Assembly (NCBI RefSeq): GCF_003991155.1 | Contig: NZ_CP031297.1 | Reading direction: 5' to 3' (one strand) | Length of the DNA stretch: 64,000 nt | From: Escherichia coli | GTDB lineage: Bacteria > Pseudomonadota > Gammaproteobacteria > Enterobacterales > Enterobacteriaceae | Part shown: positions 27,401-33,400 of the stretch, one piece after another | How the letters are laid out: each line of letters opens with the position of its first letter | How positions within the stretch are numbered: position 1 is the stretch's first letter | Position numbers: made by a program

Positions 27401-30400
27401 CGGCCAAGTGTTTGGAAGGCGAGCCATCATAGAGTCAGTAGAGAGAGATACTTTTGGAAATCAATAGTATTATGATTGGTACAAATGAGTTGTAGCTCCA
27501 TATTTTAAAGGGGGATTTCAGAGAAATGAAGAATAAGAAGGTAATAACTTTGATAATGGCCGCAGCCGCATCATGCTCGTCAGTCTACGCCGCGACATTA
27601 CCGACCAGTGAGGTAGACGCATACATACTTGCGATGAACACCATGTCACCTATCACTGCAAAGTACACCATCCAGTACAAGCAAGCGGTTGAGCAGAAAT
27701 GCAATACAGCCCTGAGCGTTGAGCAGCTCAACTCAAAGGCATTCACCAATGTTGTCCAGGCAATGGTGAGTAGTGAGACCGTCGATAGAATGGGGCTTGA
27801 TGCTGCTGGTGGATCACTCCAGGATACCCTGTCTGTGATCGGCAAGAACGTCACATGCAGTGACCTGAACGCGCCATTTAAAGCACTCTTGGATGATAAG
27901 GACTTCACCAGAAAGCATCAGCACCTATCGAAGGTGCTGCATACTTGGAATGAAGTTGTTTCTCAAAGCAAACCCTGAGTAACAAAAAGGAGCCTAACTG
28001 GCTCCTTTTTTAATGGGGATGATGTTACGTTCGTGGACGTTATTTTCACTCGGGATATGTAACGTTGAAAAAGGCGTACCGACAAGAGAGTGGTCACATA
28101 GCTCTCCATAATAGATGAGCGACAAAATCTCTTGCTCGTTGATTTTTCCCACCTTAAAAAGGTAATTGATTATTGCTGTATCCAGTAGGTCGTGACACCC
28201 ATTAAGCAGATCCACGATATTGGCCGCAGCTTCATTTTCCTCTCCGTCATCTCGACCGGCTAATACTGATTCAACCCAAGCCTCAAGGCTCGGATGTCCC
28301 TCAGCGAGCTCTATTTGACGGCACTCGTTCTCGATCAACCCTGTGATTGCTTCGTTGAGCGTTCCGCCATAAGTCGGCATGTTGAGAACAACTCCAAATC
28401 CGGGGATTTCTTTTTGGATTGGCTTCGCATCCTTGGGAGCTGATTTCAGCCACAGGAAAAACCAGATCCCAGAGCTTATGTCTTCCGGCTTGACCTGGTT
28501 GGCCGCAAGGAATTTGGAAACCTCGTTACAGATGATGCCATCTGGCGCTGCCATCTCGTAAATACCCGCCATCAGATCTTCAAGGCTCTTATACATATTA
28601 TCTCTCGCACCTGTACATGATGTTTTCACTATCGTTGTTAAGCGTTTTTTCAGCAAGTATGTTCCAGCGAGACATCTTATACCATTCCATCTAAATCTGT
28701 AAAATTACCGTATTACCGTAATTATGATAATTACGGTAAATAAATTTAAGTTCTTCTTGCTGTTGTTCTACTTATTAAAATGTATCTTTGAAAAAGTAGA
28801 GTTTTTGGAATAGGATAGGTGGTGCTGAATGCCCACTTTTTACAAGGAGCGCGACCAGTGATTTTTGATGTAAGAGCGACCTTTGAAGTGGCACTCCAGA
28901 CGGACACCCACCTGGTACTTATCGATCTGGATCAGGGAGCATCAGTTACGAACGATGCTGATGCAGTGATCGCCTGGTTGGCCGCAAACCTCGAAGGTGG
29001 AATTGGAAAACGTAAGGTGTACTACCGGGACACCGATGGACGCTTTGATGAGCTCAAGGTTAATGCCGGTGCTTTTGCCGGATTTGCACCTTGTAGCGAA
29101 GGCCAGCAGACCACCTTGGCTGGGATGCTCGGCCAGTAACTTTGTGTGGAGAACTCGATGTTAAACAAAAACAAATTTGAGAAAGTTTTAAAGAGAATCC
29201 TCGATAAGAACTTTGAGCGCTGCTCTATTTGCAGGAAACCATTCCCTGGACCGTGCCATACTTTTGCTGGTTTGGATTCGGACAATAAAGTTCAGAACGT
29301 AGGTTCTTGCTGTCGGACCAGTATTGTGGACTTGCGGCATGGAGGTGTGTATACGACCGCTCCTGTAGATACTCAAGAGGGGCAAAGTCAGGCGCATGAG
29401 CTACTCGCAACACATCCTTGTAAGGGGATGATGGGGCATGCTTAGCAAAAAAGTCTTTTTCATTAGTCAAGCGGAGGCCGAAAGACTGGAGCCGGTTCCC
29501 GGTGCGGCCATGATCTCCATAACTGACCCAGACAAGTCCCCTGCCGCTCTCGGACAGTGGGGGCAGTTGTACCGCGATAGCTTCTATGACGGCGGCTATT
29601 CTGAGAACACCATCCACACGATGAAGGCAGCGTTCCGGATGAATTACGCCTCTTACATTGACTCATCCCAGGCTGAAAAGCTGTCCACCTTCCTGGATGG
29701 ATTGGTTGGTAGCGGTATCGATCAGATCTTCGTTCATTGCTATTACGGAGAATCCAGAAGTGGCGCGGTAGCGCTGTACCTCCAGAACAAACATGGATTC
29801 ACTCCGAATAAGCCGATCACCAAGCCCAACCGAACAGTTTACGAATTGCTGTGCAATCCAACCAAGTTTGAACCACTGATGCAAAGCTACGAAACGCAAC
29901 ATATGGAGGAGGAACTACCTCTTCACCTCAAAATATGGGATTTTCTTCTCGTTGCGGTCGGGCTTAGGAGGTGACTTTGCACGACACAAACAATGACAAG
30001 GAAGAGCTAGTTTCACATGCGAAAGTAAATGTTCCGGCAGAACAAAGCATTCGCGGTGAACTGTTGCCGTCATCGAGCTCGCTCCGGAACATCCAGGACA
30101 ACCCCGCCGTCGCCTATCTGGTGAGCCTCGGGTCAAAGCGAAGCAGGCAGACCATGAGCTCATTCCTCAACATTGTCGCCAAGATGATCGGGTTTCAGAA
30201 CCTTCGTGACTGTGCATGGAGCTCAATGAGGCGGCACCACATATTGGCGGTGCTGGAAATGCTGGGGGATGCAGGGAAGGCTCCGGCAACGATCAACACC
30301 TACCTGTCAGCGCTCAAAGGGGTGGCTCTTGAAGCCTGGACGATGAAGCAAATTGATACGGATAGCTTCCAGCACATTAAGCAAGTCCGTTCAGTACGTG

Positions 30401-33400
30401 GATCTCGACTTCCTAAAGGGCGGGCACTTGAACGCCATGAGATTCGCAGCCTCTTTTTCACATGTGAAAGTGATTCAAGCGCCAAAGGGCTTCGGGATGC
30501 GGCCATTCTCGGGGTGCTCCTCGGGTGTGGCTTGCGCCGCTCGGAAATCGTTGCGCTGGACATGGGAAGCATGATCTACAAGGACCGCGCTCTCAAGGTT
30601 CTTGGCAAGGGCAACAAAGAGAGAATGGCGTATGTGCCTGGTGGCGCATGGAAAAGACTGGATAAGTGGGTTGAAGAGGTTCGAGGAACGCATGAAGGGC
30701 CTTTATTCCCGAGGATCAGGCGGTTTGATGATGTGACTGGAGAGCGGATGTCGGATCAGGCCATCTACCACATCTTGGAGACCAGAAGAGTTGAAGCCGG
30801 TCTGGAGATGTTTGCGCCCCATGACCTGCGACGCACCTTTGCCTCCTCGATGCTGGATAACGGTGAGGATATTGTGACCGTGAAGGACGCAATGGGCCAC
30901 TCAAGCATTGCAACTACCCAGAAATATGACAGACGCGGCGATGAGCGTTTGAAGAGAGCGAGCCAACGCCTCGATATAGCGGATTAACAGCATGAATGAT
31001 GAAGAACTCGAACTTGCCAGAGCCGAAGCCATGAAAGCCGATAGGTGCTTTTCAAAAGGACGGCTCAGGGACGAATTTCGGATGAAGCCTAAGCCAGGAG
31101 TAGAGCCAGTTTCGTTCTACAAAAACGGGTATGGTGGCCAATTTGGAGTGTACCGGATAGCAGATTGCCAACCAATGCGGAGAAGGGGTTGTTCACCGGC
31201 ATCACAAAAGCAAATAAGGGCGCAATCCATCCTTTCGGTCAAGGCAAGAATGCGTAGCAACCTGGCAAAGGCCTCTGTCATGGCACAAAGGTGGGTCGCT
31301 CTGGAACCTCTGGTTCTCGATACCGAGACGACCGGACTTGGTGAAAGAGACCAGGTGATCGAGCTGGCTGTTACTGACATCAGAGGCGCGGTTCTCCTCT
31401 GCACCAGATTACGGCCAACCGTGGAAATAGACCCTCAGGCAATGGGTGTTCATGGCATCACCGAGACTGAGCTGTCGAATGAGCCTACGTGGACTCAAGT
31501 TGCGCCAGCTCTCGCCCGGCTTTTGTCGGGCCGTCATCTGGTGATATTTAACTCCAGTTTCGACAGTAGGATGTTGAGGCAAACAGCCAGTGCATTTGGA
31601 GACCAACTCTCTTGGTGGCAAGAGCAGAACTGTCTGTGCGCGATGAAGCTGGCGGCTGATGCCTTTGGCTCAACCAACCGGCACGGCACAATCTCACTTG
31701 CGGATGCCACCTGCGAGGCAGGTGTGAGCTGGAAAGGTCGAGCCCATTCAGCAGCGACCGACGCTATTGCCACCGCCGACTTGGTGACAGAGATAGCCAA
31801 AGTCCAACGTGACCTCGTGGTCCAGCTCCAGGAGCTTCAAAGCAAAGGTAATTTGGAATGACAGAACAATCCTACGGCGAAAGCCTCAAATTTTTCTCAG
31901 ACTGGCAGAAGGACCCCGCGAAACGCACCGGCCTGAATGTGCAACACACGCTAACCAGAGGTGAATATCCTACGGTCAGCATCGAGATTGCGCCGATCAG
32001 GGCATCGGGGTCCAGCCCAGACTGGAAAAGCAAGATCACGGTGCAGCTCACTCGCGGCGAACTGACGGCGTTTTGCAGCGTTCTCTTTGGTTTGCGTAGC
32101 AAGGCTGAGGGTTCCTATCACGGCGACGCGAAGAATAAGAGCTTTGCGGTTTACAACAACGGCAAGGCCGGTGTTGCGATCATCCTTAGTGAGCGAGGAA
32201 ACCAGCTCCAGAATTTCATCAATGATGACGACCGAATGGAGCTCGCAGTCTTCGCAGTTCGCCAGCTTTCCAACGCATGGAAAGTTACCCCTTCTGATGC
32301 CATCGCGCTGCTACGCCAATCAGCGTGGATGGACCGAAATTTGTCCTAATCGAGCAAATCTAGGCACCCTAAAAGTCGTCCTATAACCACAAAGTTAGAC
32401 CATCATGCAAAGTGGGGTATAGAGGGTGCCAGCCCCACCCCAGCAGTCCCCCTCAGCCACATTTCTGGCTTGCCCCGCGCTTTTCTTCTTTCTCTCTTTT
32501 TCTCTCTCTTTCTCAATCTAATCTCACACACGAAGGTCAAACAGGGCACCCGCCGACGCGAAGCGGAGGCGTATTCTTGCCCCTCCCCCTCATTGCATGA
32601 TGGTCTAAATCTGTCTACTATGTAACCAATGAACTGTTAGAACAAACCCACACATAGGCGGCAGCATGGCTAAAAACTTCATATCAGAACAATTCTCGGC
32701 CATGTGCCGCGACTTAACGAACCTGTCCTCTCTTATCAAACGACTACCGCCACGGTACGCAAAAGTTGCGGCCATCCCTCCTACCGGAAAAGGAATGGAG
32801 AACGAGCCCGTCAACAAGATTGTCGTAACTGAACAAACTGGGCGCGAAGCTCTTGAGCTGGCAGCGCACAGCTACAGAGATCTTCACATCAACCCAGACT
32901 ATTCGCAGAAGTCTGCCAGGCGCACCGTGGGGGTACTCTGGTTCTCCCCTTCCAGGATTGGTGTAGCTGACGAAATTGCGGCGACGGTTGAACGCATCAA
33001 CGCGGCCAAAGCTGGTATCGAGGAGTTCATTATCTCGACGTACCCCACCAGGCAAGAGAGGTTTGAAGCACTTCGAGCGGACTGCCCTGGTGTCATGACT
33101 CTCCACCTTTACAGACAAATTCGGTGCTATACCAATGGCGACATCGACTCTATCCGCTTCACCTGGCAACGGAAGGACTCCTTGAAGAAGCCCGTAAAAG
33201 AGGAGCTTTTGCAACGCATCAGAGAGGAGCTGGAGCGATCTGGGCCAGACTATCAACTTCCCCTGGAGCAGCTTATCCAGAAGATCGCCAGCACCCCGGA
33301 GCCTTATCTCCGGGAGCGAAGGGAAGTAAAGGTTCAACCGGTGGCAAACGTCATGGCCGCAGGGGTACTCAAAACCGTTACCGCGCCAATGCCCCTGATC

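Follow-up and report, generated by a model that had tools for sequence, protein, structure and literature searches.

A stretch of 64,000 nucleotides (nt) of Escherichia coli contig NZ_CP031297.1, here referred to as the window, carries a string of six genes at positions 28858 to 32349 that encode a tyrosine recombinase, a DnaQ-like exonuclease, a phosphatase-like protein and three further proteins. About 60 nt in front of the first gene lies a 34-bp imperfect palindrome, which we describe here as the candidate core site of the recombinase. The region from 28700 to 32500 is 100% identical in hundreds of IncC (IncA/C2) conjugative plasmids, with 955 records at an identity of at least 99%, and the hosts of the identical plasmids include Salmonella, Klebsiella, Escherichia, Vibrio, Aeromonas and other genera. 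All six genes are located on the plus strand and are referred to below as P1 to P6, with the names used for plasmid pVCR94 given where they exist. P1 (vcrx132; 28858 to 29139; 93 amino acids [aa]) has a GTG start preceded by an AAGGAG Shine-Dalgarno sequence and is followed by P2, a cysteine-rich open reading frame (ORF; 29158 to 29445; 95 aa), and P3 (vcrx134; 29438 to 29974; 178 aa), which overlaps P2 by 8 nt. For the recombinase P4 (vcrx135; 29977 to 30987; 336 aa), a TTG start at 29977 was preferred over a GTG at 29971, with an AGGAGG Shine-Dalgarno sequence 5 nt upstream that lies within the last codons of P3. The exonuclease P5 (vcrx136; 30992 to 31861; 289 aa) begins 4 nt past P4, and P6 (vcrx137; 31858 to 32349; 163 aa) shares an ATGA overlap with P5. 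P2 occupies the place of an opposite-strand annotation in pVCR94, vcrx133, which is probably spurious. The preliminary description of this DNA had recorded six co-oriented and tightly packed genes, and these proved to be real: the gaps from P1 to P6 are +18, -8, +2, +4 and -4 nt, and the ratios of nonsynonymous to synonymous substitution rates (dN/dS) of all six ORFs, determined against diverged relatives, range from 0.04 to 0.30 and point to purifying selection.

The same description had suggested a single operon, and co-transcription of the genes is indeed probable. A scan of positions 28500 to 32750 revealed one sigma-70-like promoter on the plus strand, located upstream of P1, and no terminator-like sites within the string, and a published operon prediction for pVCR94 based on RNA sequencing (RNA-seq) and the program Rockhopper joined vcrx134 to vcrx137 only, leaving out vcrx132. 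The predicted promoter, recognized by its match to the consensus (TTGAAA and TAGGAT separated by 17 nt; 9 of 12 positions), is located at 28788 to 28816; the right arm of the 34-bp site contains its -35 hexamer, which is conserved along with the arm. In published chromatin immunoprecipitation-exonuclease data, an AcaCD site preceding the string is absent, which places it outside the directly AcaCD-bound transfer regulon. An Rfam scan of positions 28400 to 32800 at an E value of ≤1 gave no matches. When the curated thresholds of Pfam are applied, it also holds true that only the recombinase and the exonuclease belong to clear families. In the literature searched, vcrx132 and vcrx134 to vcrx136 are not mentioned, and vcrx137 appears only as a false positive for exclusion in transposon-directed insertion-site sequencing, its deletion having left plasmid entry unaffected.

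A 34-bp site paired with a recombinase gene

P4 matched the Pfam family Phage_integrase (PF00589) with 104.9 bits, compared to a cutoff of 27.1, as well as Phage_int_SAM_1, and aligned with E. coli XerD (1a0p) over both domains (3.6e-21). In the alignment with XerD, the catalytic set R-K-H-R-H-Y is complete, the residues being contained in the segments GLRRSE, GKGNKER, HDLRRT and GHSSIATTQKY, and P4 is predicted to be catalytically active. An assignment as a XerC or XerD orthologue was rejected, as the scores of 151.2 bits with TIGR02224 and 133.5 bits with TIGR02225 are to be compared with NCBIfam equivalog cutoffs of 335 and 330, respectively. The ResD protein of the F plasmid was also rejected as a counterpart, since the BLASTP match is restricted to 39 aa at the catalytic box with 36% identity, and so was, on comparison, the RepFIB Int protein of the same plasmid. 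The part of F that was examined, 52 kb comprising the ccd-resD-oriV and RepFIB regions, contained no sequence similar to the site. Judged by these sequence comparisons, P4 is a Xer-like tyrosine recombinase and not XerC, XerD, Cre or ResD.

The core site extends from 28767 to 28800 on the plus strand and is made up of a left arm (TCTACTTATTAAAA, 28767 to 28780), a 6-bp spacer (TGTATC, 28781 to 28786) and a right arm (TTTGAAAAAGTAGA, 28787 to 28800), with the two 14-bp arms being symmetric at 12 of 14 positions. It had not been annotated before and overlaps the sole sigma-70-like promoter of the operon. In the literature searched, the coverage of which was incomplete, neither the site sequence nor a function of vcrx135 is described. 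Inverted arms around a spacer of 6 to 8 bp are the hallmark of a cognate core site, an assignment made here from computational and natural-history evidence. Among the loci that encode a P4-family protein with at least 59% identity and for which upstream DNA was available, 22 of 22 had exactly one site, which was always located upstream of the gene and on the gene's strand, and loci without a P4-family gene also lacked the site, apart from decayed relics in Klebsiella IncFIB(K) plasmids. The 34-bp sequence is unchanged in marine Alteromonas, Alcanivorax and Rhodospirillaceae elements, the proteins of which are 56 to 64% identical to those of IncC, and in the Vibrio plasmids matched changes are seen at the same inner positions of both arms. 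Across the P4-family loci, seven spacer variants contrast with arms that hardly vary, a pattern that is expected for the core site of a tyrosine recombinase and not for an operator.

With a 44-bp probe, the site was detected in 2,158 plasmid records, of which approximately 1,000 lie beyond the IncC set, and it is nearly always present once per record; P4-family genes were found in 1,889 plasmid records. In unrelated E. coli and Klebsiella plasmids, the system is reduced to a minimal cassette consisting of the site, 119 nt and the recombinase gene. Two Klebsiella IncFIB(K)/IncFII plasmids (loci L026 and L027 of our set) contain, at around position 4001, an orphan site, the right arm of which has lost 1 nt, next to a decayed remnant of the recombinase leader and without the recombinase gene. 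Such orphan sites probably account for much of the approximately 1,000 additional matches.

Natural hybrid plasmids provide a record of exchange at the site. Artificial chimeras, in which the site was bordered on the left by sequence from one family and on the right by sequence from the other, were matched against the plasmid collection, and both reciprocal types of IncC/non-IncC junction were found to exist in nature. In NZ_LT985234, a non-IncC left flank and the spacer TGTACC are joined to an IncC right flank, in which the vcrx132, 134, 135 and 136 proteins are unchanged and the end of vcrx137 is altered by an adjacent mer region. The reciprocal chimera was matched by NZ_CP147102, NZ_CP147106 and LC807807; in NZ_CP147102, which was examined, an IncC left flank with vcrx130, vcrx131 and the repeats described below, together with the spacer TGTATC, is joined to a non-IncC recombinase flank. 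In both examined hybrids, each outer flank matches its own parent with 99.8% identity across 600 nt and has no relation to the other parent, and the switch in parentage falls between base 5 of the spacer and the end of the right arm. Shared sequence between the two parent families is limited to these 34 bp, which include one mismatch, and this makes site-specific exchange far likelier than homologous recombination. Hybrids are rare, with 4 records among the more than 2,000 that bear the site.

Upstream of the core site, a cluster of a 9-nt motif, TTACNGTAA, spans positions 28705 to 28739, with full copies at 28713 to 28721 and 28731 to 28739 and a partial copy at 28705. The two full copies make up a perfect palindrome with 13-nt arms around 1 nt; within the motif the central base is free (C, G, T or A) and the TTAC and GTAA parts are retained. 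In the IncA-type segment, the upstream palindrome shows a C/G exchange; covariation was considered as an explanation and rejected, since the exchange affects this free central base. The cluster can expand, as seen in NZ_CP147102, where about 60 to 90 nt upstream of the site there is one more 9-bp TTACCGTAT unit than in the window. The repeats are present in 8 of 8 loci that encode P1 and in none of the 7 loci that do not, and they are candidate accessory or operator sites to which P1 may bind; this last link is weak because few lineages are involved and because a pESI-like plasmid has the start of P1 and no repeats. On its other side the cluster is bordered by a divergent sigma-70-like promoter on the minus strand (28674 to 28703; TTTACA and TAAGAT separated by 18 nt), which faces vcrx131 (27994 to 28596, minus strand), the gene for a 200-aa orphan protein. 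From their position between the two promoters, the repeats could control both of them.

Companion proteins and growth of the probable operon

The preliminary description had called for remote-homology searches with the proteins of unclear family, and these gave a mixed result, namely, a dual-specificity phosphatase (DSP) fold for P3 and a Whirly fold for P6, with P1 remaining an orphan and P2 falling into an unnamed family. For P1, P2 and P6, Pfam, NCBIfam, PHROGs and PADLOC yielded no usable match, and searches of PDB sequences with P1, P6 and a P6 family profile gave matches at chance level only. P1 has no detectable domain and is 56% identical in marine relatives, with a dN/dS of about 0.25. 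P2 has an invariant CxxC...G...CC pattern and presumably binds zinc, and its domain is found either alone or at the N terminus of proteins of about 240 aa. In Vibrio plasmids, the P2 protein is 63% identical (their other proteins, 44 to 60%), and this conservation, together with a dN/dS of 0.06 to 0.10, indicates that P2 is a genuine gene, although many annotations omit the ORF. P2 also forms a recombination patch: in three loci (L012, L013 and L022), it has about 72% nt identity with saturated synonymous sites within flanks of 92 to 98% identity, and hence two alleles circulate among IncC-like plasmids.

The phosphatase-like CX5R protein noticed in the preliminary description has held up as a candidate enzyme of the DSP fold. 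The P-loop of P3, VHCYYGESRSGA, contains Cys101 and Arg107 and conforms to the HCX5R(S/T) signature, which in the family takes the form HCY[YF]GxSRSGA. Among 22 homologues, C101, G104, S106, R107 and S108 are invariant and H100 is present in at least 90%, and D30 and D51 are invariant and D32 nearly so, which makes these aspartates candidates, by conservation, for the general acid. The P3 family profile matched PTPMT1 at 3.4e-5, followed by other DSPs, and P3 itself scored 17.2 bits against Pfam DSPc, under the cutoff of 33.5; some homologues have a precomputed PF00782 match. The similarity to PTPMT1 and the hydrophobic C-terminal helix would be compatible with a lipid substrate. Compared to atypical DSPs such as PTPMT1, baculovirus PTP-2 and the DUSP family and to the DSPs of jumbo phages, P3 has the same HCxxGxxR(S/T) loop and fold; it differs in falling under the Pfam gathering thresholds and in its family-specific features, which are the N-terminal motifs ISITDPDK and FYDGGYS and the hydrophobic helix at the C terminus. 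P3 adjoins P4 in 10 of 12 genome loci and in every IncA/C-like backbone examined. Solo P3 homologues are found elsewhere among genes for RdgC, DUF2786 and an Mrr_N-methylase, and with umuDC-like genes near MobI.

By its motifs (DTE, FNSSFD and HSAATD in the translation) and a Pfam RNase_T score of 62.6 bits against a cutoff of 24, P5 is a DEDDh 3'-5' exonuclease of the DnaQ/RNase T type. In PADLOC it matched only generic DEDDh and PDC-S48 profiles, and the other five proteins were unmatched. Full-length homologues with approximately 50% identity are encoded by about 2,500 other plasmids, in one case behind the yacAB toxin-antitoxin pair of an IncI-type plasmid. P5 differs from the plasmid DnaQ/epsilon-type exonucleases in having about 100 additional aa at its N terminus (phrog_25825). 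P5 and P6 were considered as a conserved pair, which was rejected, since the gene that follows the IncI-type exonuclease is not homologous to P6. P6 consists of two beta4-alpha repeats that superpose on Whirly structures and is predicted from this fold to bind single-stranded nucleic acid. No sequence-level membership of the Whirly family was found in Pfam, NCBIfam or PDB searches, and P6 is therefore referred to as a Whirly-fold protein and not as a member of that family. It differs from Whirly, MRP1-MRP2 and PUR proteins in this lack of a sequence match and in being a plasmid protein tied to rep, par and Ter loci. Among bacteria, the literature searched offered only the N-terminal domains of Shedu and Borrelia Bpur as Whirly-like or PUR examples.

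A single functional unit of all six genes is not supported by synteny, in which only the core of site and recombinase gene is constant, in most cases accompanied by P3. This core stands by itself in the E. coli and Klebsiella plasmids mentioned above, P3 lies between its two elements in Marinomonas, and a P3 remnant takes this position in a pESI-like Salmonella plasmid. In marine relatives the order is site, P1, P3, recombinase, P6, Ter and KfrA, and in the Vibrio plasmids the site is followed by a gene for 63 aa, P2, P3, the recombinase and a gene for 262 aa, with P6 inverted. An IncA-type segment has a truncated P1, P3, the recombinase, hipB, hipA and P6 behind the site, and IncC, as represented by the window, has the full series of P1, P2, P3, recombinase, exonuclease and P6. 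P1, P2 and P6 thus come and go or sit elsewhere among the relatives, and the slot between the recombinase and P6 is variable: it is empty in the marine elements and is filled by the exonuclease in IncC, by hipBA in the IncA-type segment and by the unrelated 262-aa gene in Vibrio, so that the exonuclease is lineage specific. In the IncA-type segment of NZ_CP147085 (5436 to 7495), hipA ends in an overlap with the beginning of the Whirly-fold gene, and in the Vibrio plasmids (L003 to L005, 7577 to 8365), the 262-aa protein has no recognizable family.

Putative replication terminus and wider surroundings

In plasmid pR148, the gene order is rhs, three small genes, the string, a gene for a Tus-like "DNA replication terminus site-binding protein," a KfrA-like gene, a UvrD-like helicase gene and traFHG. 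In the window, the tus-like gene (32666 to 33541) is preceded by an inverted pair of Ter-like elements at 32389 to 32417 and 32586 to 32614, with the cores TTAGACCATCATGCAA and TTGCATGATGGTCTAA, respectively, so that arms of 16 to 29 nt enclose about 170 bp with a CT-rich tract. The operon lies approximately 3.6 kb from this pair. In IncC and in its Photorhabdus, marine and Vibrio relatives, the pair has been retained ahead of the ter gene, with the Ter proteins being only 48 to 62% identical. In Providencia plasmid pC131, its place is taken by a different inverted pair, TATGTTGGCATATTT, with similarity to the Ter core of E. coli. The E. coli core itself, GTTGTAAYKA, had no matches in the window. 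Judging from its position and conservation, the inverted pair probably represents the Ter sites of the plasmid, in an arrangement like that of R6K with its inverted ter pair, and by analogy with the action of TerB on tus, it may autoregulate the tus-like gene.

The CT-rich tract (32460 to 32530) is polymorphic in length among IncC plasmids, with intergenic regions of 316, 326 or 336 bp (steps of 10 bp), and in a Shewanella plasmid this region is shorter by about 100 bp. In the non-IncC version of the cassette (L025 and L030), the sequence ATGTTGTAAT is found about 25 to 45 nt upstream of the recombination site and matches the E. coli Ter core ATGTTGTAAC at 9 of 10 positions; it may be a binding site for the host Tus protein. 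On the other side of the string, positions 22690 to 27355 encode a 1,417-aa RHS protein with a C-terminal tip, which is followed by an overlapping ORF of 146 aa, the usual toxin-immunity layout. In IncC plasmids, rhs is also known as a hotspot for insertions.

Probable role of the site and its recombinase

Taken as a whole, the string is probably an operon that accreted on a self-contained site-specific recombination cassette, the likely task of which is the resolution of plasmid dimers, with an occasional fusion of replicons; the upstream cis site would explain why the string exists. P4 would bind to both arms, two sites would synapse, and strands would be exchanged across the 6-bp spacer, by which a dimer of the plasmid would be converted to monomers, as done by Cre and loxP for phage-plasmid P1, and two plasmids would yield a cointegrate or swap their flanks. 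Since there is one site per plasmid copy, dimer-to-monomer conversion is the expected job. The location of the -35 hexamer within the right arm suggests that occupancy by P4 probably represses the operon, which would thus be autoregulated. In IncC, P1, P2 and P3 would have been inserted between the site and the recombinase gene, and P5 and P6 would have been added behind it. The Ter-like pair and the tus-like, kfrA-like and uvrD-like genes suggest a terminus and resolution neighborhood, and a site near a putative terminus would mimic dif in the chromosomal terminus.

The closest parallel in layout is Cre-loxP, in which a single tyrosine recombinase acts, as P4 would, on a 34-bp site with inverted arms and an asymmetric spacer near its gene, one site per plasmid serves dimer resolution, and intermolecular fusion is possible, as it would also be for the P4 system. 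However, the loxP arrangement is 13-8-13 and not 14-6-14, the site sequences are unrelated, P4 is nearer to XerD than to any other recombinase of known structure, its site overlaps the operon promoter, and extra genes lie between the site and the recombinase gene. With XerC/XerD and their sites dif, cer and psi, P4 shares the alignment with XerD including all catalytic residues, a putative terminus near the site and a 6-bp spacer beginning with TGTAT; the spacer of dif is also 6 bp long. In contrast to the heterodimeric XerC/XerD pair, there is one plasmid-encoded recombinase with scores far below the cutoffs (151 versus 335 and 134 versus 330), the arms are nearly symmetric, suggesting a homodimer per site, and a requirement for FtsK or for accessory factors of the PepA/ArgR type is not evident. 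ResD-rfsF of F and Rsd-crs of Salmonella virulence plasmids are also plasmid-encoded tyrosine recombinase systems and serve in multimer resolution, the probable task of P4, and ResD is co-transcribed with maintenance genes (ccdAB in F), as P4 in the IncA-type version is followed by hipBA, but the homology of ResD to P4 is confined to the catalytic box.

The selected function could instead lie in the joining of replicons or the movement of modules by cointegration and integration, with dimer resolution being secondary. Both reciprocal hybrid junctions occur in natural plasmids, homology between plasmids begins exactly at the site in several backbones, and the site, orphan relics included, is common to approximately 2,000 plasmids of many Inc groups. 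We nevertheless regard this as a doubtful alternative, since hybrids make up so few of the records, a single site kept beside its own recombinase gene is the layout of a resolution system, a second att-like site bounding a module is absent, and the spacer differences between families should limit cross-recombination. It is very improbable that the palindrome is nothing but a promoter or operator for a transcription factor and that the junctions arose by homologous or microhomology recombination. Palindromic operators are common, and the -35 hexamer does lie within the right arm, but an operator would not account for arms that are kept while the central 6 bp vary, nor for an element that moves with the recombinase gene into unrelated backbones in which no other regulator is present; moreover, the two independent junctions fall within 34 shared bp with unrelated DNA outside, too short a stretch for efficient RecA recombination.

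Two further explanations assign a larger part to the companion proteins. All six could make up one accessory system for anti-defense, establishment or regulation in a new host, in which P2 and P3, for which the preliminary description had considered such functions, would act as effectors and the recombinase would be incidental. The genes found near solo P3 homologues, the jumbo-phage DSPs among the structural neighbors of P3 (one of them annotated as a virion protein) and the match of P5 to a candidate defense-associated DEDDh profile would be in line with such a role. However, the gene set is not conserved, with P5 being replaced, P1 and P2 optional and P6 inverted or located elsewhere, and given the lack of an AcaCD site ahead of the string, of a PADLOC match for the proteins of unclear family and of an effect of the vcrx137 deletion on plasmid entry, this explanation appears quite unlikely. 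P3 by itself might be a functional partner of P4 and thereby provide a new layer of control over site-specific recombination, as suggested by the adjacency of the two genes in IncA/C-like backbones and by the location of the P4 ribosome-binding site within the end of P3. P3 might strip an inhibitory tyrosine phosphorylation from P4 and thereby keep it active; a phage integrase has been reported to be phosphorylated by a host bacterial tyrosine kinase (BY-kinase). Alternatively, P3 might act on DNA ends that stay blocked by phosphate when phosphotyrosyl intermediates are aborted. We consider such a partnership to be unlikely.

Several points weigh against a dimer resolution cassette with later additions. 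The tightly conserved pairing of P3 and P4 is a hint that the genes joined to the core may be more than passengers, and host XerCD acting at another site could make a plasmid-encoded resolvase redundant. As the site also overlaps a promoter-like element, its conservation could be partly transcriptional. At both examined hybrid junctions the spacer of the left parent was kept, which, as a feature of junction sequences, would fit an exchange at the right boundary of the spacer and is not proof of strand-exchange chemistry. In addition, expression of the string in pVCR94 is low in the published RNA-seq data, with read counts that are very noisy between replicates, and no experiment on vcrx135 or its site was found in the literature searched.

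A plasmid tyrosine recombinase with its site is a known kind of system; what is unusual here are the probably co-transcribed companions and the wide and previously unremarked distribution. Should a partnership of P3 and P4 turn out to be true, it would represent a previously unknown layer of control at a site present in about 2,000 resistance plasmids. Along with the site, we provide new annotations, namely, a Whirly fold for vcrx137, a DSP fold for vcrx134 and, beside the tus-like gene, a putative pair of Ter sites, and a block of "hypothetical proteins" is thereby recast as a replication terminus and resolution neighborhood. Given its presence in approximately 2,000 plasmids of different incompatibility groups and the exact joins seen in hybrids, the site is a plausible route to fusion plasmids and to the exchange of flanking modules, resistance regions included, and it offers a concrete mechanism for the origin of some hybrid resistance plasmids. 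IncC plasmids are major carriers of multidrug resistance, and most of their backbone genes are without an assigned function; the pair of recombinase and site gives one operon of this backbone a testable role in dimer resolution and hence in plasmid stability.

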